Origin: a virus
Taxonomy: Duplodnaviria; Heunggongvirae; Uroviricota; Caudoviricetes
Virus record (IMG/VR): IMGVR_UViG_2718218135_000004
Strand: one strand, 5' to 3'
DNA length: 37,570 bases
The number at the start of each line of letters is the position of its first letter. The stretch's first letter is position 1. This document shows positions 1,382-36,122 of this stretch, piece by piece. The notes below the pieces were generated by a model. That model saw only the letters and a program-made list of their open reading frames with translations, was not told where the DNA came from and made no database searches. A program made the translations under genes and the position numbers.

Positions 1382-3067
1382 GTGAATATAAACGTCGCCG
1401 AATTGTTAAATGGGAATTACATTCTGTTATTATTTGTGGTCCTCGCGCTTGGGCTATGTCTCGGAAAGTTACGACTTGGTTCGATCCAACTGGGTAATTC
1501 CATTGGCGTTTTAGTCGTATCGCTGTTATTAGGCCAACAACATTTCAGCATTAACACCGATGCGCTTAATCTTGGCTTTATGCTGTTTATTTTCTGCGTC
1601 GGGGTCGAAGCCGGACCGAACTTTTTTTCCATTTTTTTTCGCGATGGGAAAAATTACCTAATGTTAGCACTGGTGATGGTTGGCAGTGCGCTGGTGATCG
1701 CCTTAGGGTTAGGTAAGCTGTTTGGCTGGGATATTGGCCTGACGGCCGGTATGTTAGCAGGCTCTATGACGTCGACACCGGTTCTGGTCGGTGCTGGCGA
1801 TACACTGCGTCATTCCGGCATGGAAAGCAGGCAGCTCTCACTGGCACTGGATAATCTGAGCCTCGGGTATGCCTTAACCTATTTAATCGGTCTGGTGAGT
1901 TTGATTGTTGGTGCGCGTTACTTGCCGAAATTGCAGCATCAGGACTTACAGACCAGCGCCCAGCAAATCGCCCGCGAACGTGGCCTGGACACTGATGCCA
2001 ACCGTAAGGTTTATTTACCGGTGATCCGCGCCTATCGCGTCGGCCCGGAGCTGGTGGCCTGGACCGACGGCAAAAATCTGCGTGAACTGGGTATTTATCG
2101 ACAAACCGGCTGCTACATTGAACGTATTCGACGTAACGGGATTCTGGCAAATCCAGACGGTGATGCCGTGCTACAAATGGGCGATGAAATAGCGTTGGTA
2201 GGCTATCCCGACGCCCATGCCCGACTCGATCCCAGCTTCCGTAACGGTAAAGAAGTTTTCGATCGTGACCTTCTCGACATGCGTATCGTCACTGAAGAAG
2301 TGGTCGTTAAAAACCATAACGCTGTAGGTAAACGTCTCGCACAACTGAAGTTGACCGATCACGGTTGCTTCCTTAACCGCGTCATTCGTAGCCAGATTGA
2401 GATGCCGATAGATGACAACGTCGTGCTTAACAAAGGTGACGTTTTACAAGTCAGCGGTGATGCCCGTCGCGTAAAAACCATCGCCGATCGCATCGGCTTT
2501 ATCTCGATTCACAGCCAGGTCACTGACCTGCTGGCATTTTGCGCCTTCTTTGTTATTGGGCTGATGATCGGGATGATCACCTTCCAGTTCAGCACATTCA
2601 GTTTCGGCATGGGGAACGCTGCCGGGTTGTTATTCGCCGGAATTATGCTGGGCTTTATGCGTGCTAACCACCCGACCTTCGGTTACATTCCGCAAGGTGC
2701 ATTAAGCATGGTGAAAGAGTTCGGCTTGATGGTGTTTATGGCAGGCGTTGGTCTGAGCGCCGGTAGCGGTATTAATAACGGCCTGGGCGCGATTGGCGGT
2801 CAGATGTTGATTGCCGGATTAATTGTCAGTCTTGTGCCCGTGGTTATCTGTTTCTTGTTCGGTGCTTATGTATTGCGAATGAACCGCGCACTGTTGTTCG
2901 GCGCAATGATGGGCGCACGCACCTGCGCGCCGGCAATGGAGATCATCAGTGATACAGCTCGCAGTAACATCCCTGCGCTGGGCTATGCGGGCACCTACGC
3001 AATCGCCAACGTCCTGCTGACGCTGGCAGGGACAATCATCGTCATGGTATGGCCAGGATTAGGATAA
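1382..3067 (+). CDS. ybjL: putative AAE-family transporter YbjL (561 aa)
   Basis: 561-aa ORF from GTG 1382; N- and C-terminal TM blocks flanking a soluble central region; T7/T8 homopolymers at 1621-1645 read through in frame. Confidence 0.85.
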
Positions 3068-3179
3068 AACTGAAGTTGCCCTGAAAATGAAATTTTTTTG
3101 CACAACCGCAGAACTTTTCCGCAGGGCATCAGTCTTAATTAGTGCCACTGCTTTTCTTTGATGTCCCCATTTTGTGGAG

Positions 3180-3222
3180 CCCATCAACCCCGCCATTTCG
3201 GTTCAAGGTTGATGGGTTTTTT
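3180..3222 (+). terminator. rho-independent terminator-like hairpin in ybjL/prophage junction
   Basis: CCCATCAACC (3180-3189) ... GGTTGATGGG (3207-3216) followed by TTTTTT (3217-3222). Confidence 0.6.
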
Positions 3223-3302
3223 GTTGCCTGAAATTTATGCCTTTTAAAATCATGATGTTAGAAGCACTGTTTTTTAACGATGGCGACAAATTGGCGGCAG
3301 CG

Positions 3303-3521
3303 TCAAAGAGAGAGCGCCACCTGTCCTGATTTCATTGGATGCGGCTGAACCGGATTTGACTCTTTTGGCGTTGCAATCGAACGAACAAAAGTTTCATGGG
3401 TAACAAAAGTATGGCTGCAGTTAATGTTCTGACACTGGTTGTAACGCTCTTTGGTCAATGAAGATACCTGAAAACTGCTGCGAGTATGGGCGGCACTTCC
3501 ACACAGTGGGCAAATCATCAT
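3303..3521 (-). CDS. ogr: Ogr/Delta-type zinc-finger late transcription activator (72 aa)
   Basis: MMICPLCGSAAHTRSS...YNQCQNINCSHTF matches the Ogr C2C2 pattern CPLC...CQN.NC; start chosen at internal ATG 3521, ORF-track start 3554 is an extension. Confidence 0.85.
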   Translation of the reverse strand: MMICPLCGSAAHTRSSFQVSSLTKERYNQCQNINCSHTFVTHETFVRSIATPKESNPVQPHPMKSGQVALSL

Positions 3522-3611
3522 TTTTCGAGTTCTCCCCATTTTTGCTAAATTCACAATAATGATACCGCATTATTCCATTTTGAAAACTTAAAAGTTCTCC
3601 ATTGCGAAGAA

Positions 3612-4712
3612 TCATTCCATTTCGAAATCATCAATCTTCACTTCAAGCTCCAGACTGGTCGTAAAACCGTTATCCGGGCTGACGGTATGTGTCAGAGTCG
3701 TAATGGTCCATTCCGCATCATCTATCGGCTGTTTAAAACCACTGACCTTCACAGGCATTTCCGTGTAGAGATCTGCCCGCCCTTCCGCCAGTTGTAGCGA
3801 GAATGACGCAACGCCGCGTTGCAGGCGTTCCCACTGCATTTTTGCCGCTCGTTCGGCGTTGCTCCGGTTGGCATAAGTGCGATTAAGTACCAGCACGTTT
3901 TCATCCGTCCCCACCAGGTAATCGCCCTGCTTCGCTTCCGGCTCTTTCTTCTGCTTCTTAGTCCTGTGCTTACGCTTCACCGTAGTGCTTTCTTTCTTCG
4001 CGGGTTCGCGGGTATGCAACCAGCTGGCAATTACCCCCGTGTAGGCTCCGCGATCTGCCAGGGTAAAGCGGTGACTGTCGCCGTCCTTGCGTGTGATAGT
4101 GATCACCGGCAGTGGTTTACCAGTGGCGCTTTTGCCCTGTCCCTGCCGGATGAATAACAGATTGCCATTTTTCACCGACGCGATGGCACCGTACTGGCGT
4201 GCCAGCCGCATCAGAAAACTGCCGTCACTCTCATTAGTCTGGTCTATATGCTCCACGGGCTTATCCGACAGGTCTTTACCCAGTGCCATCTTCAGCTTGT
4301 GACGCGCGGCTATTTCCTTCACCACTTCCCCGACAGTGGTCTTGTGCCACGATTTTTCACGGCGGGTATTCAGCGTTTCCCTAAAATCAGCACTTCGCGC
4401 CCGGATAGTCAGGTGATCCGGTGCGCCAGTGTGTTCAATCTCGTCCACCGTGAATGCCCCTTTCGGGAAAAGCGGCTGCCCCTTCCAGCCCAGCGCCAGC
4501 GTAATGACCGCACCACGGCGCGGCAGCACGATTTTTCCGTCGGCGTCGTCCAGCTCCAGATCAAGCTGGTCCGCTTCAAAGCCCCGGTTATCCGTCAGCG
4601 TAAGCCCCATCAGGCGGTTGTCCAGCACAGTGGTGATATCCTTGCCTTCAATACTGATGCTGAATGCTGGAGTTTTGTTGCCTTTGTTAAGCAGTTCAGA
4701 GCTGAAATTCAC
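3612..4712 (-). CDS. D: tail protein gpD-like
   Basis: 366-aa ORF at the gpD position (between ogr and U); recalled similarity to P2 gpD. Confidence 0.85.
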   Translation of the reverse strand: MNFSSELLNKGNKTPAFSISIEGKDITTVLDNRLMGLTLTDNRGFEADQLDLELDDADGKIVLPRRGAVITLALGWKGQPLFPKGAFTVDEIEHTGAPDHLTIRARSADFRETLNTRREKSWHKTTVGEVVKEIAARHKLKMALGKDLSDKPVEHIDQTNESDGSFLMRLARQYGAIASVKNGNLLFIRQGQGKSATGKPLPVITITRKDGDSHRFTLADRGAYTGVIASWLHTREPAKKESTTVKRKHRTKKQKKEPEAKQGDYLVGTDENVLVLNRTYANRSNAERAAKMQWERLQRGVASFSLQLAEGRADLYTEMPVKVSGFKQPIDDAEWTITTLTHTVSPDNGFTTSLELEVKIDDFEME

Positions 4713-16709: not shown

Positions 16710-17913
16710 ATGTATAAAATTCAAAGCGTCACAATTAATGGCTTTTGGCAGCGATTAAACTGTTCCTGCTCATTTAATGATGATGTAAATATTATTATAG
16801 GCCGAAATGGCACGGGTAAAACAACCTTTATGAACCTTCTGCACTCAATATTATCCCTTGATTTGGACAGTATTAACAATGCTGATTTCAATAGTGCCGA
16901 AATAAAACTTAAAGATAAAAAAAAGACAAAAACAATCAAAGTCAAAAAACTTGAAAGCGAATTCGTTATTTAACACTGATGATAGAAGAATATCTCTTAG
17001 TTATAGACGTAGAGTGCATGATGAAACAGAAGAACTAAGAACAGAACTAGCAAAACTAGTCTCGCTTTCTTCTTTATCTGTTTACAGATTAAGAAATAGT
17101 GATGATTTTGAAGTTAAAGATAAATATGGCTCTCGTTTTATCAACCCTGTTGACTATAAGTTATCAGAATTAATACAGGAACTTACAAAATATCAACTTG
17201 AACTATCCCAGAAAGCCAGAGATATCGCATTAGAACTGCAAAAAGAGGTTCTGGCATCAATACTTTATAGCAAGGAAGATATGGAGAATCCTGCTTACAA
17301 CATTAACTTTAACAAAGAGGAAGAAAAACAAAACCTCCTTAATGCATACACACAGTTAAATGCTATTGATCAAAACATTCGTAAAAAAATCAGCTTTCAT
17401 GTTGAAACAATTAATAATACCATTTCGGAATTAAAGAATAAAAGTGAAAGTGGCTTTGATATTCGTTCGATCGAAGCATTGAGAAAAACACAAAAAATAA
17501 TCAAAATGTCATTAACTTCAAAAGAGAAAACATCAAAAATATTTTCTCCAATAGAACAATTCTTAAGCATACTAAGAAATTTTATCACCGATAAAGAATT
17601 TCATTTTCAATCGGGATTGTTAGTCATAAATAACACCTATGGGCCAATAGTTTTAGAAAGTTTATCTTCTGGTGAAAAACAACTGCTAATTTTATTCATT
17701 GAGACCCTCTTGCAAAGAGGGCAACAATATATTTTCCTAACTGATGAGCCTGAGCTTTCCTTACATATTCAATGGCAAAGAAATATTATCCCTGCCATAA
17801 AAAAATTAAATCCTAATGCACAAATTATTGCTGCAACCCATTCTCCTGAAGTTGCATCTAAATATAAAAACGCCATTTTCAATATGGAGAGATTAGTCAA
17901 TGCTAATCAATGA
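16710..17913 (+). pseudogene. ABC-type ATPase (AAA_15/21-like, AriA/OLD-ATPase-like), split by a +1 frameshift at an A8 tract (16917-16924)
   Basis: Walker A GRNGTGKTT in the 87-aa N-terminal ORF; SSGEKQ, Walker B YIFLTDEPELSLH and ATHSPE in the 320-aa C-terminal ORF; the two ORFs overlap 16951-16973 in different frames. Confidence 0.7.
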
Positions 17914-18756
17914 TTCTAATGCAGAAAACTTTTCTTGGTCTAATGAAGCGGAAAATGTGATCAGTTTATTTTATGATGCTGATATTATGGTCTATGTTGA
18001 AGGTGAAGATGACATTGCTTTTTGGGAAATAATTTTTAAAAAAATGGTCGTTTTAATGTAGAAGTTCAAGATGTTGGTGGATGTGAAGCTTTACAACCAT
18101 ATATCGAAAAAATAACCTCAGGAGAAATAAACGCTATAGTTGCCAGAGATTCGGATCTAAACCATTTTTCTGACAACATAGTAAAGCATACAAATATTAT
18201 TTACACAAAGGGATATTCAATAGAAAACACAATCATTGATGAAAAAATCATATCACACATACTCAAAAACACAGGCCGTTTTTGCACGAAAAAAATGCAG
18301 GAAATAGATGTGGAAAATTGGCTTTCTAATTTCTATAGCAACATTGAGAACTTAATAATACTAGATATTCACAATCATTTAAATAAATTAGGATGCTCCG
18401 TAATTGGTGATTCCTGTGATCGTTTTATGCAATCAAGAAATTCATACAATATATGCAAGGAAAAAATAGATGAATATATCAATAGACTACCTGAATCGTT
18501 TACTACTAATGGTTTAGCAGAAAAAAACAACATTCAATTCCCAGAAAATACATCTATAAATCATTGGGTGAAAGGGCACTTTCTTTTCTCAGCATCATTA
18601 AGATTTATAACAAACTTTTTGGCATCCATCAATAAAAAAACCTCTATATCCAAGGATAGTTTTTACGCAAACATCTTGTCTGCATTTGAGATTTTTTATA
18701 CAGAAGAACATGCTGATTATAGTTATTACAATCAAAAGATAGGGGCCATCACATAA
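17900..18756 (+). pseudogene. Toprim-like (OLD/DUF4435-type, AriB-like) protein, split by a frameshift at an A7 tract (18038-18044)
   Basis: ATG 17900 overlaps the ATPase stop by 14 nt; frame 2 reads ..VYVEGEDDIAFWEIIFKK then stops at 18059-61; frame 1 is open from 18040 to 18756 (..AIVARDSD..GYSIEN..). Confidence 0.65.
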
Positions 18757-24736: not shown

Positions 24737-26503
24737 ATGAACACCACACTGACACCCGCAGATCTCGATCCCCGTCGGCAGGCCATGCTGCTGTACTTTC
24801 AGGGATACCGCGTCGCCCGCATTGCTGAAATGCTGGGCGAGAAAGTTGCAACTGTTCACAGCTGGAAAAAACGCGACAAGTGGGGTGACTATGGGCCGCT
24901 GGATCAGATGCAGCTCACCACCGCCGCACGCTACTGCCAGCTCATTATGAAGGAGCACAAAGAAGGGAAAGATTTCAAAGAGATTGACCTGCTGGCGCGC
25001 CAGTCGGAGCGCCACGCGCGGATCGGCAAGTTTAACAATGGCGGCAACGAAGCCGACTTAAACCCTAACGTCGCCAACCGCAACAAAGGCCCACGCCGTC
25101 AGCCGGAAAAGAATGTTTTCACCGATGAACAGATTGAGAAGCTGGAAGAAATCTTCCATTCCTCCATGTTCAACTACCAGCGCCACTGGTGGGAAGCCGG
25201 AAAAACCAACCGCATCCGCAACCTGCTGAAGTCACGCCAGATCGGCGCAACCTTCTATTTTGCCCGTGAAGCCCTGATTGACGCCCTGCTGACCGGACGT
25301 AACCAGATTTTCCTTTCCGCCAGCAAGGCACAGGCCCACGTCTTTAAGCAGTACATCTTCGACTTCGCCAAAGAAGTGGAGGTGGAGCTGAAAGGTGATC
25401 CGATGGTGCTTCCTAACGGTGCCACTCTTTACTTCCTCGGCACCAATGCCCGCACTGCCCAGAGTTATCACGGCAACCTGTATCTGGATGAATATTTCTG
25501 GATACCGAAATTTCAGGAGCTGCGTAAAGTGGCTTCCGGTATGGCTATTCACAAAAAATGGCGACAAACCTATTTTTCCACGCCATCAAGCCTGACCCAC
25601 AGTGCTTATCCGTTCTGGTCCGGTGCGCTGTTCAACCGTGGACGCAACAAAGCCGACAAGGTGGACATCGACCTGTCCCACAGCAATCTGGCCCCCGGCC
25701 TGCTGTGCGCAGACGGGCAATACCGCCAGATAGTCACCGTGGAAGATGCGGTGCGCGGCGGCTGCAACCTGTTCGACCTTGACCAGTTGCGCATGGAGTA
25801 CAGCCCGGACGAATACCAGAACCTGCTGATGTGCGAGTTTGTGGACGATCTCGCGTCCGTGTTTCCGCTCAGCGAGCTGCAGGCGTGCATGGTGGACAGT
25901 TGGGAAGTCTGGACCGACTTTCATGCACTGGCCCTTCGCCCGTTTGGGTGGCGCGAAGTGTGGATCGGTTATGACCCGGCAAAAGGTACGCAGAACGGCG
26001 ACAGCGCCGGATGCGTGGTGGTGGCACCGCCAGCCGTGCCGGGCGGTAAGTTCCGTATTCTTGAGCGCCACCAGTGGCGCGGGATGGACTTCCGCGCCCA
26101 GGCGGACGCCATCAAAAAACTGACCGAACAGTACAACGTGACATATATCGGCATCGACTCGACGGGTGTCGGTCACGGGGTTTACGAGAACGTGAAAGCG
26201 TTTTTTCCTGCCGTCCGGGAGTTTGTCTACAACCCCAACGTTAAAAATGCCCTGGTACTCAAGGCATACGACATTATCAGCCACCGCCGTCTGGAGTTTG
26301 ACGCCGGGCACACCGACATTGCGCAGTCATTCATGGCAATCCGTCGCGCCACCACCGCCAGTGGCAACCGCCCGACCTATGAAGCCAGCCGCAGCGAAGA
26401 AGCCAGCCACGCCGATCTGGCCTGGGCAACGATGCACGCACTGTTTAATGAACCGCTGCAGGGCGAGTCCGCCAATACAAGCAATATTGTGGAGATTTTT
26501 TGA
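24737..26503 (+). CDS. P: terminase large (ATPase) subunit gpP-like
   Basis: 588-aa ORF divergent from O. Confidence 0.9.
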   Translation: MNTTLTPADLDPRRQAMLLYFQGYRVARIAEMLGEKVATVHSWKKRDKWGDYGPLDQMQLTTAARYCQLIMKEHKEGKDFKEIDLLARQSERHARIGKFNNGGNEADLNPNVANRNKGPRRQPEKNVFTDEQIEKLEEIFHSSMFNYQRHWWEAGKTNRIRNLLKSRQIGATFYFAREALIDALLTGRNQIFLSASKAQAHVFKQYIFDFAKEVEVELKGDPMVLPNGATLYFLGTNARTAQSYHGNLYLDEYFWIPKFQELRKVASGMAIHKKWRQTYFSTPSSLTHSAYPFWSGALFNRGRNKADKVDIDLSHSNLAPGLLCADGQYRQIVTVEDAVRGGCNLFDLDQLRMEYSPDEYQNLLMCEFVDDLASVFPLSELQACMVDSWEVWTDFHALALRPFGWREVWIGYDPAKGTQNGDSAGCVVVAPPAVPGGKFRILERHQWRGMDFRAQADAIKKLTEQYNVTYIGIDSTGVGHGVYENVKAFFPAVREFVYNPNVKNALVLKAYDIISHRRLEFDAGHTDIAQSFMAIRRATTASGNRPTYEASRSEEASHADLAWATMHALFNEPLQGESANTSNIVEIF

Positions 26504-27549
26504 TGGGAAAGAGTAAGAAAAACCGCGCTGCGGCGATGAATCACATCCAGCATAAAAGCCAGACTTCAGCCGAAGCATTCAGCTTCGGCGATCCCGTTCC
26601 TGTTCTGGACCGCCGAGAATTACTGGACTATGTGGAATGCGTACAGATGGACCGTTGGTATGAGCCGCCCGTCAGCTTTGACGGACTGGCGCGCACCTTC
26701 CGCGCCGCCGTGCATCACAGTTCCCCGATTGCAGTAAAGTGCAACATTCTGACCAGTACCTATATCCCTCATCCGCTGCTCAGCCAGCAGGCTTTTTCGC
26801 GTTTTGTGCAGGACTATCTGGTATTTGGTAACGCCTACCTGGAGAAACGCACGAACCGCTTCGGTGAAGTTATCGCCCTTGAACCGACCCTGGCAAAATA
26901 CACCCGACGCGGATTAGACCTGGATACCTACTGGTTTGTGCAATACGGCATGACTACGCAGCCGTATCAGTTCACGAAAGGCAGCATTTTTCATCTGATG
27001 GAACCGGACATCAACCAGGAGATCTACGGCCTGCCCGGTTATCTTTCTGCCATTCCGTCAGCCCTGCTCAACGAGTCCGCCACGCTGTTCCGCCGCAAGT
27101 ATTACATTAACGGCAGTCATGCAGGCTTCATCATGTACATGACCGATGCAGCGCAGAACCAGGAGGATGTGAACAACCTCCGCAATGCGATGAAAAGCGC
27201 CAAAGGTCCTGGTAACTTCCGTAACCTGTTTATGTACTCGCCTAACGGTAAAAAGGACGGGCTTCAGATTATCCCGTTGTCAGAAGTGGCGGCGAAGGAT
27301 GAGTTCCTGAATATCAAGAACGTGAGCCGGGACGACATGATGGCGGCGCATCGTGTGCCGCCACAAATGATGGGGATAATGCCTAATAATGTCGGGGGGT
27401 TTGGGGATGTAGAAAAGGCAAGCCGTGTCTTTGTCCGCAACGAGTTGATACCTCTGCAGAAACGCCTACAGGAACTTAACAACTGGCTGGGCGATGAAGT
27501 TATACGTTTCGAGCCGTACACTTTAGATATTCAGAATGAAAAGAAATAA
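26500..27549 (+). CDS. Q: portal protein gpQ-like
   Basis: 349-aa ORF, ATGA overlap with P stop. Confidence 0.88.
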   Translation: MMGKSKKNRAAAMNHIQHKSQTSAEAFSFGDPVPVLDRRELLDYVECVQMDRWYEPPVSFDGLARTFRAAVHHSSPIAVKCNILTSTYIPHPLLSQQAFSRFVQDYLVFGNAYLEKRTNRFGEVIALEPTLAKYTRRGLDLDTYWFVQYGMTTQPYQFTKGSIFHLMEPDINQEIYGLPGYLSAIPSALLNESATLFRRKYYINGSHAGFIMYMTDAAQNQEDVNNLRNAMKSAKGPGNFRNLFMYSPNGKKDGLQIIPLSEVAAKDEFLNIKNVSRDDMMAAHRVPPQMMGIMPNNVGGFGDVEKASRVFVRNELIPLQKRLQELNNWLGDEVIRFEPYTLDIQNEKK

Positions 27550-27577
27550 AAGTTAGCGAATAAAAATCATTAGCATA

Positions 27578-27596
27578 GGCCGCAAACTGAGCGGCC
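27578..27596. terminator. hairpin between convergent Q and hotspot operon
   Basis: GGCCGC-AAACTGA-GCGGCC followed by TTATT. Confidence 0.5.
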
Positions 27597-27603
27597 TTAT
27601 TCA

Positions 27604-27873
27604 TTACCAATTTCTTTTTTCGGAGTTTAGCCAATCACCGCATGGATAATATCTTGACGCCCATTCACCTTGTAAACGAGCTACAAACAGAATATCGTTA
27701 CTATCGACCCTGGCTTGGAGTCCGTCACGCAGTTGAGTTGCGGTCAGCGTTGTATCTACTAACCAAAATGATTCAAGATATTTACAGTATGTAAATTGCT
27801 TTAGATAGTCAAAAACTTCATCGTAGTTTCTTCCCGGAGCCTTCAAGTCATAGGTTATACAATAAATAGCCAT
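27604..27873 (-). CDS. hypothetical 89-aa protein (hotspot cargo)
   Basis: ORF with GGAG RBS that overlaps the stop of the upstream Zn-ribbon gene; no family recognised from sequence. Confidence 0.55.
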   Translation of the reverse strand: MAIYCITYDLKAPGRNYDEVFDYLKQFTYCKYLESFWLVDTTLTATQLRDGLQARVDSNDILFVARLQGEWASRYYPCGDWLNSEKRNW

Positions 27874-27876
27874 TCT

Positions 27877-28059
27877 CTAAGCTCCGCATTTTTTATCATT
27901 TGGGGAACATCTTAACCTGCGACATTTGCGGCAATACGATTGAGGGATCAGCCGCTCTCCTTCCATAGTTCTAAAACCAAACACTTCTTCAATTTTGTTC
28001 AAATCACCACTTGCAATAACCCCACAGCAGGGGCAGACAGCCTCAATTTGAAATGCCAT
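27877..28059 (-). CDS. small Zn-ribbon protein (about 60 aa; CPCC...CRKC)
   Basis: Start chosen at ATG 28059 with GGAG RBS; ORF-track TTG start 28122 is less likely; Cys pattern C-x-C-C ... C-x-x-C. Confidence 0.5.
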   Translation of the reverse strand: MAFQIEAVCPCCGVIASGDLNKIEEVFGFRTMEGERLIPQSYCRKCRRLRCSPNDKKCGA

Positions 28060-28699
28060 GTCTATCTCCATTCCACATGTTGAATGTAGGGTAATACTTC
28101 CTTTCAAGCAAAAATGAGACAAGGATCTTGAAACCTAATTTAAACTTGCTTGCGCGCGCTCGTATCCCCGCCACGCCTGCCCGCTTTATGTAGTAGTTTT
28201 CATGCACCTGCATGACATGAGCAAAAGCCCGCCAGTTCTGGCATGTCTTAGCCAAACCGATCCTCAAACGATCATGCGAACTCATGCAGCATAGACATGC
28301 ATGACATGAAAATCGGTCAAACCTTGAAACCAGTCATAAATATGAGCCAGCTTAATACACACTAAATAGCTGCGTCTAATACTGCTACACCTGCCGTTTA
28401 CTGACATGTGGCATGTCGCGTAAGGACAACATACTGTAGGCCAGATACAGCAGGATCAGGCGAAGAAAACGGCCCCACGCCTTACCCAGCAAGGGCCAAG
28501 GGCTAACCGAAAGTGGAGCATTATTCCGCGCAGTTATTTAGTGTCAGCTCTTTTGAGCTAAAATCAAGTTTCAACATGAGGGTCTGTGCAGGCTTTCTCA
28601 TCCCGCTAATTTATACAGCACACCTATATGGCTATGAGTTTGTCATGCCCGCTAATCCTGTTAGGATTAGCCTTGTTTTTTTACGATTGGGATAGGGAT

Positions 28700-29506
28700 A
28701 TGAAGAAATTAACTGGCGTAATTGCTTTTGCTCTGCTGCTTACTGCTTGTGACAAACCGAAGATCGATGCATCAAGCGATCAGTCGATGAAAGAGTCCAT
28801 TCAAAAAGTAAGAGAGTCCTTACCTGCAGATAAAAAAGCTCAGTTTGATGATGCAGTTAAAGTCGTTGCCTTTAGCCAAATCAACATGAGAGAGCTAATG
28901 CAGGCTGGAACGTCTTCTGGGGACGTCTACGAAACAAAAATTAAGTCAGCGTTGGAAGGTAAAACTGGTGATGAGGTTATAAATTACGCACAAACTATTC
29001 GCCTTGAGCGTGAGAAGAGAGAGAAAGAACAGGCTCTGCAAGAAATAAAAGAACTGGAAGCCAAACAAACCTCTGCAACACAGGCTGCGGAAAAAATGAA
29101 AGCCTTCAAGGTCGAACGTTCCCGTTTTTATTTCCAGAAAGAGGATTACGGCAATGATCAGCCAATTCTGGATATTAGCGTTGAAAACGGAACAGACAAA
29201 GCGGTTGCCAGAGTATTCTTCAAAGGAGTTATTGCCAGCCCAGGAAGAAGCGTCCCTTGGTTCTCTGACGTCTTCAACTATAAAATTTCTGGAGGTCTGG
29301 AACCAGGTGAGAAAGCCAACTGGAAATTAGCCCCTAATAGATACTCTGATTGGGGAAAACTTAAAGTTCCGGCTGATGCTATATTTACCGTCACAGTCAT
29401 TGGCCTTGAAGACGCAGATGGGAAATCGATCTATGGTGACGCCGAGTTTTCAGAACGCGATGCTGACAGACTGAATCAACTTAGAGATAAGTACCTTTCT
29501 AAATAA
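28700..29506 (+). CDS. lipoprotein (268 aa) with coiled-coil segment
   Basis: MKKLTGVIAFALLLTAC signal peptide plus lipobox; ORF-track start 28628 is an upstream extension. Confidence 0.7.
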   Translation: MKKLTGVIAFALLLTACDKPKIDASSDQSMKESIQKVRESLPADKKAQFDDAVKVVAFSQINMRELMQAGTSSGDVYETKIKSALEGKTGDEVINYAQTIRLEREKREKEQALQEIKELEAKQTSATQAAEKMKAFKVERSRFYFQKEDYGNDQPILDISVENGTDKAVARVFFKGVIASPGRSVPWFSDVFNYKISGGLEPGEKANWKLAPNRYSDWGKLKVPADAIFTVTVIGLEDADGKSIYGDAEFSERDADRLNQLRDKYLSK

Positions 29507-29614
29507 TCAAAATTAAAGCTACTTCAGCATAGTCCCTGAGAATATATATCAGGGACTACCAAATCACGGCAGATACCCCTTAGTTAAATAATGCTAAACG
29601 CTTAGAAAGAGACC

Positions 29615-29914
29615 ATGAAACGTATAACTTTCTCCTTTACGTTAGTAGCAATCATCATAGCCTTAGCTGGATGTGCTTTGCCAGATAAAGACGGCGACTT
29701 CGGAGCTTATGTTCATGCCTGTCAGCAATATGCATACGGAAAATCCTATGCCTTTGAGAATAGAGACTTCGCGTATAAGGTCTGTAAGGACGCGGCGAAA
29801 CTGTGGAGTGAAGAAGTTCCTGGCTATATCATCAGGCAAATTCAACTACATCCTGAAATACCCAGCGAAGAAATTAAATATGCAGCCATGGCCGGCTCTT
29901 TGGGTAACAACTAA
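29615..29914 (+). CDS. small lipoprotein (99 aa)
   Basis: MKRITFSFTLVAIIIALAGC signal peptide plus lipobox. Confidence 0.7.
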   Translation: MKRITFSFTLVAIIIALAGCALPDKDGDFGAYVHACQQYAYGKSYAFENRDFAYKVCKDAAKLWSEEVPGYIIRQIQLHPEIPSEEIKYAAMAGSLGNN

Positions 29915-29927
29915 ATCAACTTATGAG

Positions 29928-29950
29928 AAAGGGGCTTAATGCCCCTTTTC
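29928..29950. terminator. rho-independent terminator between convergent lipoprotein gene and small ORF
   Basis: AAAGGGGC-TTAAT-GCCCCTTTT stem-loop. Confidence 0.65.
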
Positions 29951-29981
29951 GGTTCCCTTATCAAGTCCTAACGAAACAAGC

Positions 29982-30170
29982 TCAACTGATTACATCCATC
30001 GACCTACTGTATTCATGGCTTCGAATTTTCGCCATCAACTCATCAGTCAATTCAGAAACCCACTGCAGAGCTAGCCCCTTCTCTTCATCACTACACTCAC
30101 TAGCCGCTACAAGCTTAAGAAAAAAATCAATGCGCTGGAGCTTCAAAGACTCCAAAAAATAGTCCTGCAT
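29982..30170 (-). CDS. small helical protein (62 aa) downstream of tandem LexA boxes; candidate SOS-induced antirepressor (Tum-like position)
   Basis: ATG 30170 with AGGAGG RBS 4 nt upstream; ORF-track start 30272 would lie upstream of the LexA boxes. Confidence 0.55.
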   Translation of the reverse strand: MQDYFLESLKLQRIDFFLKLVAASECSDEEKGLALQWVSELTDELMAKIRSHEYSRSMDVIS

Positions 30171-30196
30171 CTTTCCTCCTATAACACCATACGCAA

Positions 30197-30231
30197 TACT
30201 GTACATATAAACACTGTTTATATTTACAGTA
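30197..30231 (-). promoter_or_regulatory. two overlapping LexA (SOS) boxes
   Basis: CTGT-ACATATAA-ACAC (30199-30214) and perfect CTGT-TTATATTT-ACAG (30214-30229), immediately upstream of the 62-aa ORF. Confidence 0.65.
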
Positions 30232-30323
30232 TATAATAATCTTACTGATGTAAAACGTTTTTTTACGTTCATCAGCCTGATATGCCTGGTATTATTAAGA
30301 GCACGAATTGTTAACCCGCGTGA

Positions 30324-32738
30324 TTAATACAGGTTCCGCCACTTATCATCTTCCTGCAAACGCTGGTTCCGATAGAAGATACGCAGGCCTGCTCCTGACG
30401 GAATACTGCCACCGCAAAGGAGCAAATCGACCTCTTTCTCGCTGCCATCAAATCCTCTGGACTTCAGTTCATAGACGAGCTGCTGACGCTGATACTCTGT
30501 AATTCGCTGTTTGTAGTCTTTACGCCGTTTCGGTTTAACCAGGCGCAATCTTGCTGCCAGTTCCCGGCGCTCTTTTTTGCTCATACTGTGCAGGTAATCG
30601 TGCAATTCCTTGTCATCCATGCAGGTAATGTCCGTTCTGGTATCCCCATCTGCTGATTCATCTTTCTCATGTTGGTTCAAATTTTCAGCAAGGGGACAGT
30701 TATTGCCACGAGTCCAAGGGGCGCAAGCGCCCTGGTCGGCTGCCGCCTCCTGAACGTCAACGGCCTTACGAACCATTTTCCACTTCACCGCATGAGTGCA
30801 GATCTTGCCCTCTGCAATGGGTGACCAGATGCCATAAATACGAATGCCGTGATCGCCATAGGCGGTCGGCTCTTCGTTAATTTCATAAGCAGTTCTGATG
30901 AGGTGATATTTGCGGGGAACCAGTACGCCGCCCTGCTTCATGATGTAAGTGGCAAAACAACCAGCATCAGCAGCAGCCAGGATTGCATCAAGGCGCGGGT
31001 TATCCAGTACCGGCGCACCTGCTTTTTTGTCCCCCTGTTGCCTTGCCGCCTGACCAGCCAGCAATCGCAGTTCACGGTAAGCCTGACGCCCCGGAATGCC
31101 AAAGAAGCGGAATTGCTGAACACGATGCAAAGACGCCCAGGCATTCACGTATTCAGCGTTATCACGCAGAGATTTACCCGTTTCCTTGCTGATCTCGCCA
31201 GCCAGACCACGCCCGTCAATGTTCTTGCTGATATATTTCGCGATGTAGCTTGTCGGCGTTCCTTTGCGCGGGTTAATCAACTCAGACTTAAATCGTGGTC
31301 CCGTGTTATTCCCCAGCTCCTCGCGGTCTTCACGAATGGCAAACTTACGCAATAAAGCAGTAATGGCGCGGCGATCTTTTTTGCGCATAAAACACAACAG
31401 GTGCCAGTGAACTGTACCGTCATGATGCGGCTCAGCCACCCGCACGCCATACCAGCGCAATCCGGCTTTGTGCATCGCCTTACGAAATGCAGCAAACATG
31501 CCGACCAGATAATCACTGCTTTGTCTTACCGTCGCATTTGTCCAGGTCGGGTTGGGCCTGCCGTTATTTAGCGTGGAATGGAAACGTGACGGACAGGTGA
31601 TGGTGTAGAAAACGGCGCAGTCACCGCGCATTTCCGCGATAAGCTCCAGGCCTTTAACACAGGCCATCATCTCATTGCGGCGATGCGCAGGGTTGCTGCT
31701 GCTGGCGTTTACCACATCCTCCATGTCCAGCGTGTCGCCGTCTTCGTTCACCAGTTCATGAGAACGAAAAAACTCCAGCGACTTACGGCGCTGCTCACGT
31801 TTATGCATCACGGCTTCATAGCTGACATAAGGAGATGCTTTTTTGCTAACCAGGCAGACAGCGCGCAACTGCTCTTCCCGCCATTCGCAACGCATCTTCC
31901 ATAATTTCCGATACCACCAGTCGGCGCACAACATACGCGCCAGCGAACCCGGAATGAGTTCATAGGGCACGGGTTTACGGCGGTTTCTTTTCCGGCGGAG
32001 TTGCTCAAACGCAGGAGGAATGACATCCAGACGCAGGGTTTCCGCCGCCACCCTTTCCCATGTCTTGCGGATTTCTTCTGGCTTAACGTCATCGGTGGCA
32101 TACAAATCGCCACAAGCTGCATCAAGACACATGCTCATATGCGCAGCAACAAGGGTGGACAGGCGTTTCACCTGATCCTGACTCATTTCAGGCAGGATCA
32201 GCAGGCCGTCCAGCCCTTCATGGCTTGCCATAAAGCGAAAAGAAGTGGATAGCTGACAGTCGCGTACATGCTCCAGTCGTTCCAGACATGGCTTAATCGT
32301 CTCACGCAAATAGCGGGAATAAGCCTTTGGCCTGCCCAGGCTGCTGAAGTATTCGATACGTTGCATCAGCGGTTTGCTGATATGGGAAGGCTGGGCATTG
32401 ACGTCCGCCAGAATGACCATATCTGGATTAAAACGCTGCTGCTCATGCGCCAGCTTTGCCCGGCTAATGAGCTTATCCTGCTCCATTTCGCGTTGGACAG
32501 GATCACGGGATTCATTAAAGAAATAACGCTCCCAGACCTGATCACTTAGTGCCTCGCGACGCAGTTGTTCCTGCTCATTATCGACAGCGTACAGAGTGAT
32601 CAGGTTTGAAAGCGCAGAAACCGGCGCAACTTCCGCCAGGTCCAGATAAGGGTTAATGGCCTTTTTCGGGCTGTTCCATGAGAATGCTGCGGCGACCTCG
32701 TTAAAGCCGCTGCAGTTGTTCATATCATCATGGCTCAT
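30324..32738 (-). CDS. A: replication initiation protein gpA-like (rolling-circle nickase)
   Basis: 804-aa ORF at the gpA position. Confidence 0.85.
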
Positions 32739-33592
32739 GCACGCACTCCGTACATGGCAGAACTATCCACGCCACGCGAAGGATCAAATCCCACCCAGCA
32801 GCGCGCCCCGGAAACAGCAATGATTTCTGTTGCAGATTTACTCTCGCCAGCCGACACGCCGATGCTGCGTTTTGCCTTGATGTAGTGGTGAGTGAAATTG
32901 CGATACAGCGAACGAATCAGGGATGTGTCACTGTTAGAAACAATGACCGGATGACCTTCAGATGATCGATGTTCAAGAACAGATGCCAGGTGATACTGGT
33001 CATCTTCAGTGAAGCCATCAGTGTGATAGCCGGAAAACGTACCGTCATAAGGCGGATCGCAATACACCACATCCCCCACCTTCAACATCGCCAGCGTTTC
33101 ATCAAAGCTGGCGCAGATAAACGTTGCCCGCTGGGCTTTCTCTGCAAATGCGCGAATTTCTTTTTCAGGGAAATACGGATTTTTATAATTACCGTAGGGA
33201 ATGTTGAAATACCCGCTCTTGTTATAGCGACATAACCCACGGTAACCATGACGATTGAGATACAGAAAATATACCGCTTTCATGAAATCAGTAATTTCAG
33301 TGGAGTAATTAAACTCCTGCCTGATGTTGTAATAAGTCACCTCCCTGTTTGCTTCCTCAAATAAAGCTCTGGCACGAGATATAAACGCCTCACAATCAGC
33401 AGCAACCTTTTTATAGAGGTTGATTAAATCAGGATTAATATCCGCAACAAGATAGCTGGGGTAATCCGTCTCCATCATCACTGCACAGGAACCCGCGAAA
33501 GGTTCAACCAGTCGCGGGCCAGCAGGAAGGTGTTTTTTCAGTTCGGACATAATGGCGGTTTTATTTCCCGCCCATTTCAGGATGGTGCTCAT
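32735..33592 (-). CDS. dam: DNA adenine methyltransferase (Dam-like, D12 class)
   Basis: SAM-binding FAGSCAV motif and catalytic DPPY motif; start at [11 protein letters not shown] (33592); ATGA overlaps with the neighbouring genes. Confidence 0.85.
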
Positions 33593-33816
33593 ACAGCACC
33601 TCCGTTGTAATGTTTGCCTTTCAGCTCTGCAATTTCCTGGCAGGTAATGCAAAGCTGCACACCCGGAATGGCACGGCGGCGTGCTGGCGGAATTGGCGCT
33701 TCACACTCAATGCAAAGCACGCGAGACACGCCCGGTGTTTTGGCACGGGCAGCACGGATATGGCGCTGGCGTTCTTCTTCAACGCGCTGCTGTACGAGAT
33801 CCATTGCATCAGCCAT
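33589..33816 (-). CDS. TraR/DksA-family C4 zinc-finger protein
   Basis: CIECEAPIP...CITCQ C4 pattern in a 75-aa ORF. Confidence 0.7.
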   Translation of the reverse strand: MADAMDLVQQRVEEERQRHIRAARAKTPGVSRVLCIECEAPIPPARRRAIPGVQLCITCQEIAELKGKHYNGGAV

Positions 33817-34629: not shown

Positions 34630-35148
34630 TCACAGCAAACCGAATGAAGCACCGAGGCCAGTCACGGTATCAACTGCACTCGCCATCGCAGGATTAGCCT
34701 GTAAACGGGCCTGCAATGAAACAGCAGCCAGCGCCATCAGTCGTGTTACAGAGTTAATGCTGCTGATAGCATCACGACGACCGGCACTAGTTTTTACATC
34801 ACCAGATACCGCACCTGCTGCAACACGTCCGATCTCTGCAGTTGCGCTCATGACGTAATGCGGCAGTTTCTCTTTTGCAACCTCATTAATCGGTACACAT
34901 GGCAGGCAGTGAATCTGTGCCAGAAAACCATCTACCAGCGTTGAATCTTCAGTCAGATCGGTAAGCAGCCAGATTTCTGGTGCGGTTAATAAATGAGGTT
35001 GAGATGGGTTCAGCTTGTTCCGCAGAATCTGCACATTCATGCCAGCACGTTCTGCCAGTTGCACCAGATTGTGGCGCAGTGCGAATGCACGACAGGCTTC
35101 ATCAAAATGTGGATGTTTGGAAACTTGGTAATCAAACATGGTTTTCAA
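34630..35148 (-). CDS. cII: CII-like transcriptional activator (186 CII family)
   Basis: Recalled near-identity to phage 186 CII ([34 protein letters not shown]); the true start may be the internal Met at MFDYQ. Confidence 0.85.
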
Positions 35149-35407: not shown

Positions 35408-35552
35408 AAGGCAACATTCCTTCTAGATATGGCTTGTGGCGAGCCGTTGTTTGTCGTGATTAGTAGTGAAGGCTCCAAAAGAACACTTCTGGCTCAACTT
35501 TAAGATCGCTTTTGGAATCTGTCAACGAATTTTGGATTTCTTTGGAGGACTT
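35408..35552. promoter_or_regulatory. divergent immunity switch region (pR/pL-type promoters and operators)
   Basis: 145-bp intergenic region between divergent apl and cI; promoters and operators not individually mapped. Confidence 0.5.
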
Positions 35553-36122
35553 GTGGATTTCAATAGCGGCGGTAAGAAAGCCATAGAACGTTTAGTTGAA
35601 GCATATGGGTTCGGTACCCGTCAGGCTCTCTGTGATCATTTAGGTGTTTCTAAGAGCACCATGGCAACGCGCTATATGCGTGATATTTTTCCAGCAGATT
35701 GGGTAATCCAGTGCGCCCTTGAAACGGGCACCTCGCTTAATTGGCTAACAACAGGGCATGGTTCAAAGCAAGCATCAGCAAATACAAATACTATAGAAGT
35801 AGAAAAATATTTATTGTCTGATGGAGCATTGCAGAAAGACGGTTTTTATATTTTTGATAAGGGATTTCTACCCTCTACGTTTAAAAAACCTTTTGTCATC
35901 ACAGATAACAATTCTGAATTTATTTGTGATAAAGAATTTGATGATATACGTGATGGTAAATGGGTAATAAGTATTGATGGCGAAATAACGATCCGTGACA
36001 TTACTCGTTTACCCGGTGGAAGAATCTTCGTCGAGGGTGGAAACAGAGCCTTCGAATGCAAGATAGAAGACATTGAAATAATTGGTAAAATTATAAGTTT
36101 AACAGTCAAGTATGTTAAATAG
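35553..36122 (+). CDS. cI: CI-like immunity repressor (186 CI family)
   Basis: GTG 35553 preceded by GGAGGA RBS; ERLVEAYGFG ... CALETGTSLNWLTTG recalled from 186 CI; ORF-track start 35466 is an extension. Confidence 0.8.
   Translation: MDFNSGGKKAIERLVEAYGFGTRQALCDHLGVSKSTMATRYMRDIFPADWVIQCALETGTSLNWLTTGHGSKQASANTNTIEVEKYLLSDGALQKDGFYIFDKGFLPSTFKKPFVITDNNSEFICDKEFDDIRDGKWVISIDGEITIRDITRLPGGRIFVEGGNRAFECKIEDIEIIGKIISLTVKYVK

Follow-up and report, generated by a model that had tools for sequence, protein, structure and literature searches.

Which genes occupy the space between the portal gene and the replication gene of a P2-like prophage, and do they behave as one exchangeable block? Positions 27550-30323 of IMG/VR virus record IMGVR_UViG_2718218135_000004 (Caudoviricetes) raise this question; the whole 37,570-nucleotide (nt) stretch was analyzed and is called the window here. 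An earlier reading of the letters, referred to below as the original prediction, had taken the interval for a hotspot equivalent to the tin/old position of P2, filled with unrelated small cargo genes. The element is a P2/186/Fels-2-like (Peduoviridae) prophage. The left conserved flank of the interval is the portal gene Q (26500-27549, plus strand), which matches Pfam Phage_portal (E = 1.8e-18) and shares 89-99% amino acid (aa) identity with the Q proteins of relatives. The right conserved flank is the replication endonuclease gene A (30324-32738, minus strand; Pfam Phage_GPA, E = 5e-128). With both flanking genes identified, the interval is therefore the known gpQ-gpA accessory region of a Fels-2/186-like prophage, adjoining the cohesive-end site, cos. 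Its guanine-cytosine (GC) fraction of 0.425, against 0.548 for the terminase gene P plus Q and 0.525 for A, bears out the AT-rich 2.8-kilobase block that had been described. Our results point to a two-slot region built around cos, with tumA as a core switch, a possible conflict module in slot 1 and a candidate envelope moron in slot 2, and we consider this overall reading probable.

Recombination breakpoints were located by pairwise alignment with relatives that have one side only in common with the window. E. coli HH194M carries the same lipoprotein genes and other genes beside Q, and its homology runs rightwards from 28149. E. coli RM10466 carries the same Zn-ribbon/Cas2-like gene pair and other genes beyond it; its homology extends to 28301 and resumes at 29981. 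The 153-base-pair (bp) segment 28149-28301 (GC 0.536), the cos core, is the sole segment common to relatives differing on both sides, and it separates the variable slots. The order across the locus is Q, slot 1 between Q and cos (about 27550-28148, genes on the minus strand, GC 0.40), the cos core, slot 2 between cos and A (28302-29980, genes on the plus strand, GC 0.43), tumA with its LexA-controlled promoter (29981-30323, minus strand, shared with relatives) and A. The right junction of slot 2 falls exactly at the tumA stop codon. Judged from these alignments, the locus is two independently exchanging slots flanking cos, rather than a single block. Recombination at three anchors, the 3' end of Q, the stop codon of tumA and, between them, the cos core of 153 bp, would swap the slots independently.

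The gene-free gap of about 28060-28699, described earlier as a 580-bp non-coding region, does exist, but it is not empty, holding cos within the conserved core. A cohesive-end-like 19-mer lies at 28159-28177. Its minus-strand reading, GGCGTGGCGGGGATACGAG, agrees with the 186 cos (GGCGTGGCGGGGAAAGCAT) in 14 of its 19 bases, including the whole of the first 13, and with P2 cosR likewise in 14 of 19. The sequence beside it, CATAAAGCGGGCA, resembles the 186 right end, CATAAAGTGGGCA. From this identity to the P2 and 186 cos sites, we infer that 28159-28177 is cos, at which terminase would cut and package the DNA. An 80-aa open reading frame (ORF) at 28043-28285 (minus strand; phrog_28685, E = 2.7e-26) was not accepted as a gene, since the cos cleavage site lies within it and it is conserved only because the cos DNA is. 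It is probably a spurious gene call propagated through that conservation. One Klebsiella phage record lists a hypothetical protein of 49 aa (L015:5083-5232) at an overlapping ORF in the equivalent region.

The content of both slots varied among relatives. In IMG/VR P2-like contigs that share an identical lipoprotein cassette, slot 1 held no fewer than nine different sets of genes, each on the same strand, and slot 2 also differs among Fels-2, RM10466, Klebsiella phi13.6, 186 and P2. Of 5,426 complete E. coli genomes, 7 carried the slot-1 module, 22 carried the slot-2 cassette (19 chromosomal, 3 plasmid) and none carried both; about 1,262 had the cos and tumA flanks. Exactly this window's arrangement was seen in one IMG/VR contig (L023). 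The same-locus comparison across P2/186-like prophages that had been proposed as a check thus gave a divided answer, with variable cargo on the one hand and conserved tumA and cos on the other. The description as unrelated small cargo holds for four of the five genes, which are rare and exchangeable, and fails for tumA. A single tin/old-equivalent hotspot, filled throughout with morons including the LexA-controlled ORF and containing a featureless 580-bp spacer, would explain an AT-rich interval that lies between Q and A like P2 old/tin and carries rare cargo in four genes of five. It is nevertheless quite unlikely. The conserved cos core lies in that spacer, recombination acts separately on either side of cos, and the LexA-controlled ORF is conserved beside A in the Fels-2 lineage and related to Tum by profile.

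What stands of the hotspot claim, under the two-slot reading, is the gpQ-gpA hotspot itself; only the cos-A slot is the equivalent of old and tin. Slot 2 alone matches P2 old/tin in place and orientation, these genes being transcribed from near cos towards A, and the Q-cos slot is gene-free in P2 and 186. The cos-proximal gpQ-gpA region has been described as a diversity hotspot of E. coli P2-like prophages, with 1,650 arrangements among 18,150 loci, and the 62-aa and 99-aa proteins of our interval (WP_001580533 and WP_001580534) appear in Table S5 of that study as 'hypothetical' (Rousset et al. 2022, PMC9122126). The present locus shares with that hotspot, and with the P2 tin-old ('TO') region, its site between Q and A beside cos and gene sets that vary among near-identical prophages. 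It differs in having two slots around cos, whereas P2 and 186 have no Q-cos genes, in that none of its cargo matches a known defence model (PADLOC), and in that tumA is core. The hotspot (Rousset 2022; P2 TO region), TumA and cos were already known, and the stand-alone Cas2-like protein and DUF6694 were catalogued and uncharacterised; what is new here is that, in the Fels-2 lineage, the region has a two-slot anatomy around cos.

Searches of all ORFs against Pfam, NCBIfam and PADLOC returned, among those of the interval, only DUF6694 and weak Cas2 matches. The expectation that none of the genes would resemble old, tin or a retron was correct. No similarity to old, tin, a retron reverse transcriptase, DinI or 186 orf97 was detected by Pfam, PADLOC or tblastn. 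The OLD ATPase with TOPRIM, Tin and reverse transcriptase were absent by Pfam and PADLOC, P2 Old and Tin gave no tblastn match in the window, and tblastn against the window recovered no remnant of DinI, old, tin, P2 orf91, 186 orf97 or Fels-2 STM2726. Rfam had no match in the interval on either strand at E ≤ 1.

The small LexA-controlled ORF had been counted among the cargo. The control element is indeed there, and the gene is not cargo. Two abutting LexA boxes occupy 30199-30229 (minus strand), one a perfect CTGT-N8-ACAG at 30214-30229 and the other with one mismatch at 30199-30214, and they sit between the promoter and the ribosome-binding site (RBS; GGAGG) of tumA. These boxes fall inside the 96-aa ORF as listed, so the real gene is the 62-aa ORF at 29982-30170 (minus strand). 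Although 30214-30229 is the only perfect box in the window, 29 of 100 shuffled sequences carried at least one, which speaks against the significance of the box taken alone. Its credibility comes from where it lies and from being conserved with Fels-2, 186 and PsP3. The region upstream of tumA is nearly identical to that of Fels-2, and the layout from LexA box to RBS is that of 186 p95/tum and PsP3 tumA. The 62-aa protein is 95% identical to Fels-2 STM2728, and 66 phage records contain it, among them those of Fels-2, SopE-phi and RE-2010 and of numerous Klebsiella and Escherichia phages. Inspection of relatives' annotations or gene layouts placed tumA beside A in every case. The original prediction had named conserved core genes at this locus in most P2-like phages as the finding that would speak against it; with its 66 phage records and a flank shared by some 1,262 genomes, tumA is the only gene of the interval that answers to this description.

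Profile comparisons related this protein to known antirepressors. It matched phrog_698 (4.8e-37), phrog_8554 (5.4e-8) and phrog_1993 (6.4e-3); residues 1-61 of 186 Tum matched the same three at 2.4e-5, 1.4e-11 and 1e-22, and PsP3 TumA belongs to phrog_1993 (2.7e-32). The prophage also encodes a 186-type CI repressor at 35466-36122 (Phage_CI_repr, 3e-31; Phage_CI_C, 5e-29). From these PHROG links and the presence of a 186-type CI in the same prophage, the LexA-controlled ORF is best read as a TumA-type SOS antirepressor, a core gene rather than cargo. In phage 186, Tum is a LexA-controlled antirepressor with a DinI-like C-terminal half, and tum is split in Fels-2 and PSP3, the upstream half being the antirepressor (Lemire et al. 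2011, PMC3121763). Homology, synteny and the cognate CI suggest that the window phage uses the mechanism demonstrated with 186 Tum and also reported of PsP3 TumA: LexA cleavage after DNA damage would derepress tumA, CI would be inactivated and the prophage induced. This assignment has points to its disadvantage. The link between tumA and 186 Tum was seen by profiles only, BLASTP comparison of the 62-aa protein with 186 Tum and PsP3 TumA returned nothing (about 20% identity in alignment), and the antirepressor assignment in Fels-2/PSP3 rests on a personal communication (for PSP3) cited in PMC3121763.

The gene differs from its relatives in its DinI partner. With 186 Tum, PsP3 TumA and Fels-2 STM2728 it shares a LexA box directly upstream, a place on the cos side of A, a length of about 60 aa and a 186-type CI. 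In 186 Tum the DinI-like half is part of the fused protein, and PsP3 and Fels-2 encode it downstream as a gene of its own. The window phage has none: a search of the whole window detected nothing similar to DinI. Fels-2, RM10466 and Klebsiella phi13.6 each have a DinI-like gene after tumA; the junction at 29981 was compared with this gene at loci L002 (3999-4232) and L003 (4556-4789). The gene is missing in all lipoprotein-cassette prophages examined, which makes these natural tumA-only variants. Being within slot 2, the gene of the PsP3 tumB type is absent here because it has been replaced by the lipoprotein cassette. The apparent identity of the LexA-controlled ORF as a tumA that has lost its DinI partner is new to this analysis, and the absence of tumB offers a natural experiment on whether DinI tunes SOS induction in 186-like prophages. 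For automated defence mining of the hotspot in the Fels-2/186 lineage, it means that the gene catalogue also includes core tumA and often its DinI partner.

Slot 1 holds the two-gene operon of a Zn-ribbon and an 89-aa protein that had been described, on the minus strand. The upstream partner is a cysteine-rich Zn-ribbon protein (27877-28059; phrog_19700, E = 6e-42). Its ORF was listed with 81 aa; the PHROG alignment, which begins at residue 22, and the homologues put the start at M22, which shortens it to 60 aa. It has seven conserved cysteines, including CPCC...CRKC, and its ratio of nonsynonymous to synonymous substitution rates (dN/dS) is 0.07-0.08. Its matches were in PHROGs only, with none in Pfam, NCBIfam or PADLOC, and it is conserved as coding sequence, at 80-83% aa identity, in Klebsiella and in another P2-like phage. 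The second gene begins 3 nt further on, with a GGAG RBS inside the end of the first, and encodes the 89-aa stand-alone protein of the Cas2/VapD superfamily (27604-27873). The two genes would be transcribed from the cos side towards Q and translationally coupled.

The 89-aa protein gave weak PADLOC matches to Cas2b (E = 5e-4) and Cas2 (E = 3.4e-3) and no Pfam match. A profile built from 12 homologues retrieved 4,188 cluster representatives from 1.84 billion proteins, 1,264 of them at E ≤ 1e-10, and nearly all members are 85-95 aa long. Pfam CRISPR_Cas2 (PF09827) was matched by 19 of 45 diverse members (best 1.7e-9), and the family profile matched Cas2 of the PDB weakly (E = 0.09). The family motifs YDL, ESxW and DxND-LFV align with YDV, NSVF and KDSLRIY of B. 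halodurans Cas2. Residue D9, invariant in the 12 close homologues and conserved in at least 90% of the 45 diverse ones, aligns with the Asp of YDV; at the end of strand 1, it is the equivalent of the catalytic Asp of Cas2. D60 is also invariant and S35 conserved. The AlphaFold2 model is confident and has the Cas2 fold, and a Foldseek search with it against viral structures returned unannotated or insignificant matches only. Two members are tandem fusions (P0033, 184 aa; P0173, 273 aa), which suggests that the protein would act as a dimer. In another member, P0156 (1,507 aa), the Cas2-like domain lies inside a much larger protein. From these features, the protein is probably a small dimeric nuclease using Asp9.

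Neither cas1 nor a CRISPR array was found in the window or in the other Cas2-like loci examined, where the neighbours are phage, mobile-element or defence-island genes. In this the protein is like VapD and BPSL1038, which occur without CRISPR. From Cas2 it differs in having its own conserved motifs (PGRNY, ESxW, DxND and two C-terminal Trp) and no nearby cas1 or array. Cas2 homologues on mobile elements without antitoxins have been noted and given a proposed toxin-like role (Makarova et al. 2012, PMC3506569), and BPSL1038 of Burkholderia is a stand-alone Cas2-like DNase (PMC10491678). The VapXD toxin-antitoxin system likewise has a small upstream partner in one operon with the nuclease; the Zn-ribbon protein, however, is unrelated to VapX and was missing from the distant Cas2-like homologues screened.

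The strongest functional clue to the Cas2-like pair, in our assessment, is its position in a slot that otherwise houses defence systems. In sister prophages, slot 1 carries on the same strand AbiLi/AbiLii (E = 5e-101 and 8e-30), AbiU (1e-105), an NsnA/PD-T4-2-like DUF262 protein (8e-31), Hp1 (3e-62), PDC-M03A (6e-121) and a weak PD-T7-4 match. Distant homologues stand alone in a marine defence island with Abi_2 and SIR2/TIR Thoeris-like genes, and others lie beside a type IIG restriction enzyme or at the edges of integrative elements. Slot 1 may therefore be a conflict module of the toxin-antitoxin-like, abortive-infection or defence kind, based on a small nuclease and protecting the lysogen; we hold this tentatively, as the leading candidate function. 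The narrower proposal, that the Zn-ribbon/Cas2-like pair is a previously unrecognised anti-phage module (abortive-infection or toxin-antitoxin-like) and its family a widespread small nuclease effector of inter-element conflict, is conceivable but rather doubtful.

Several findings weigh against these proposals. PADLOC 2.0, Pfam and NCBIfam gave the cargo of the interval no match to a defence system or exclusion protein. The 89-aa protein fell below the curated threshold of every Cas2 model. Three other P2-like phages (L003, L015 and L019; 80-100% identity) have the Zn-ribbon gene immediately upstream of the Cas2-like gene, and this partner was missing from all distant Cas2-like homologues screened: upstream gaps and tblastn yielded no such ORF near L008-L014 and L018, and the gene calls of L040-L043, which were the only screen applied there, show no such partner. 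At L016 (911-1450), a 52%-identical Zn-ribbon homologue is followed by an unrelated, highly acidic 100-aa protein. With the partner absent from distant homologues and a different one at L016, the pairing is local rather than obligate. As a modular partner or regulator, the Zn-ribbon protein may work with more than one effector. The L016 homologue lies downstream of a helix-turn-helix gene. A search for other partners of the Cas2-like gene found a 177-aa membrane/coiled-coil protein in two related elements, on different sides of it, and no obligate partner emerged among the distant homologues examined. No functional study of Cas2-like anti-phage systems came to light in our search of the literature.

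Type I-E/I-F CRISPR-Cas is common in enterobacterial hosts. A phage-borne, small protein with the Cas2 fold, Cas2-profile similarity and no obligate partner across its family could, with or without the Zn-ribbon protein, serve counter-defence, either as a Cas2 mimic that poisons Cas1-Cas2 or as a nuclease breaking down an immune signal or nucleic acid of the host. We consider this unlikely. The same slot in sister prophages holds defence and not anti-defence systems, distant homologues sit in bacterial defence islands beside Thoeris-like, Abi_2 and restriction genes, solved Cas2 proteins share no more than 13-17% identity with it, and the conserved Asp9 and Asp60 suggest catalysis over mimicry. 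A conflict module protecting the lysogen remains the leading candidate for slot 1. What appears new, from sequence comparison, is the placement of the 89-aa protein in a very large CRISPR-independent Cas2 branch and in a slot otherwise used by Abi and defence genes. For a large, unannotated family of Cas2-like proteins independent of CRISPR, the Q-cos slot provides an inexpensive guilt-by-position test. Should the pair prove to defend against phages, thousands of orphan genes would gain a function with bearing on the origin of Cas2, and the family of about 4,200 clusters and about 90 aa would be a living example of the toxin-like ancestry proposed for Cas2. Unless the Cas2-like pair proves to be a defence system, the importance of the locus is modest.

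A recurrent trio of genes was also observed in slot 1 of other prophages (L001, positions 1985-3863, E. coli HH194M; L026; L032), encoding proteins of 355 aa, 106 aa (STAS-like) and 164 aa (membrane). The 355-aa protein, the sole one scanned, had no PADLOC match, and the trio is an uncharacterised candidate system.

Slot 2 carries the two lipoprotein genes whose signal peptides and lipoboxes had been recognized, and both features were confirmed with the pattern [LVI][ASTVI][GAS]C. The first gene (28700-29506, plus strand) encodes a 268-aa DUF6694 lipoprotein; its ORF was listed with 292 aa, and RefSeq and Pfam support the MKKLTG start. The DUF6694 match is firm (E = 4.3e-22; 78.9 bits against a cutoff of 24.3), and RefSeq names the protein 'DUF6694 family lipoprotein'. 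The second (29615-29914, plus strand; phrog_7666, E = 1e-64) encodes a 99-aa lipoprotein with a dN/dS of 0.12. The signal peptides end in the lipoboxes MKKLTGVIAFALLLTAC (LTAC, Cys17) in the DUF6694 protein and MKRITFSFTLVAIIIALAGC (LAGC, Cys20) in the 99-aa protein, and within the DUF6694 alignment conservation of the lipobox Cys reaches at least 90%. Asp at position +2 is the classical inner-membrane retention signal in E. coli. The +2 residue is Asp in the DUF6694 protein, predicted to be retained in the inner membrane, and Ala in the 99-aa protein, predicted to be sorted to the outer membrane. The AlphaFold2 model of the DUF6694 protein (mean predicted local distance difference test score 84.6) comprises a helical N-terminal domain, the part covered by Pfam, a helix of about 45 residues and a C-terminal beta-sandwich.

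The two genes have different distributions. The DUF6694 family has at least 354 members of near-constant length, with about 50% identity from Enterobacterales to Methylophaga and Desulfobacula, and they occur in prophages, on small E. coli plasmids beside insertion sequence (IS) elements, in an integrative element and in ordinary chromosomal neighbourhoods. In the loci examined, the DUF6694 gene had no constant partner outside P2-like prophages. Homology with the plasmid copies starts at about 28613-28648, within the cassette-specific leader (28302-28699, plus strand), and takes in a promoter-like site (28640-28667) and a palindrome (28651-28671); the DUF6694 gene therefore travels as a self-contained moron. 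In P2-like loci the 99-aa lipoprotein gene always follows the DUF6694 gene, and homologues of 74% identity without DUF6694 occur on Klebsiella phage-plasmids of about 110 kilobases (215 plasmid records). On this distribution, each lipoprotein gene is individually mobile. The palindrome is a perfect 9-bp inverted repeat, GCTAATCC-TGT-TAGGATTAGC, followed by seven T, at 28651-28671, 29 nt upstream of the DUF6694 start. It overlaps the predicted -10 element and moves with the gene onto plasmids, and it could be an insulating terminator or an operator. In E. coli ECONIH4 (NZ_CP026399.1) and CAVP776 (NZ_CM176338.1), IS1 lies inside the lipoprotein cassette, which is otherwise 99.5% identical.

These features suggest that slot 2 would be a moron supplying lysogenic-conversion envelope proteins, a periplasmic DUF6694 lipoprotein anchored in the inner membrane and a small outer-membrane lipoprotein. 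Its equivalent in 186 holds orf97, annotated 'expression from plasmid blocks 186 infection', and in P2 it holds old and tin. Because these other known occupants of the slot act on phages, we rank superinfection exclusion or envelope modification first for the lipoprotein pair, as a cautious preference that falls short of a probable assignment. In being small prophage lipoproteins that occupy an accessory slot and have a promoter and terminator of their own, the two proteins are like Cor (phi80/N15), Llp (T5), Bor (lambda) and Ltp (TP-J34). The present pair differs from them in lacking sequence or profile similarity, and the DUF6694 protein in being larger, with two domains, predicted to reside in the inner membrane and common outside phages. 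Pfam, PHROG and NCBIfam searches gave no link to Cor, Llp, Bor or any enzyme family; a PHROG match to Cor (E = 0.066) covered the signal peptide only. Our literature search found no functional study of DUF6694.

The lipoproteins might instead be host-fitness or virulence factors, acting in serum resistance, envelope stress or immunity to periplasmic toxins, as lambda Bor does. Bor is in the same size class as the 99-aa lipoprotein. DUF6694 is widespread at about 50% identity in plant-pathogen and environmental chromosomes outside prophages, its gene is found on small plasmids beside IS elements, and the chromosomal copies in Pectobacterium and Methylophaga, which count against a phage-directed role, fit a general envelope role as well as they fit phage exclusion. 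The lack of similarity to Bor/Iss, Cor and Llp, and a place and orientation shared with old/tin and 186 orf97, which act on phages, speak against host fitness; neither is decisive. Host fitness is a possible reading and a close second to superinfection exclusion or envelope modification, which we continue to place first. DUF6694 is unusually conserved across distant bacteria and moves alone among prophages, plasmids and chromosomes, so a phenotype would annotate a whole Pfam DUF.

Small ORFs in AT-rich DNA with no characterised homologues could also be non-functional hitch-hikers or decaying remnants. This is very improbable for the cargo here. Against diverged homologues (dS 0.15 to more than 1), dN/dS was 0.05-0.21 for all five genes, tumA spanning that same 0.05-0.21, and the low values mark them as genuine genes under purifying selection. 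The AlphaFold2 models are confident, the families are large, and start codons, RBSs and terminators are intact. Predicted hairpin terminators lie between each convergent gene pair, and both would act in either direction by the terminator scan. One, at 27577-27597 between Q and the Cas2-like operon, has predicted energies of -13.4 kcal/mol on the plus and -14.9 on the minus strand (z -3.4 and -2.7). The other, at 29927-29949 between the 99-aa lipoprotein gene and tumA, has -15.1 and -14.2 kcal/mol (z -2.7 and -2.3).

Beyond the interval, the terminase gene P (24737-26503, plus strand) lies to the left. Past A follow genes for a Dam methylase, DUF5347, CII (CP76; 34630-35148), the 186-type CI repressor and an integrase. 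The Dam methylase is of the D12 class (32735-33652, minus strand) and directly upstream of A, as in Fels-2. A second AT-rich island (16710-18756, GC about 0.31) lies among the tail genes, in a position equivalent to P2 Z/fun, and encodes PARIS-like AriA (PADLOC, E = 7e-13 and 1e-27) and AriB (E = 9.5e-6). AriA is split into ORFs of 87 and 320 aa, AriB is represented by a C-terminal 153-aa ORF only, and the system may be pseudogenised or frameshifted.

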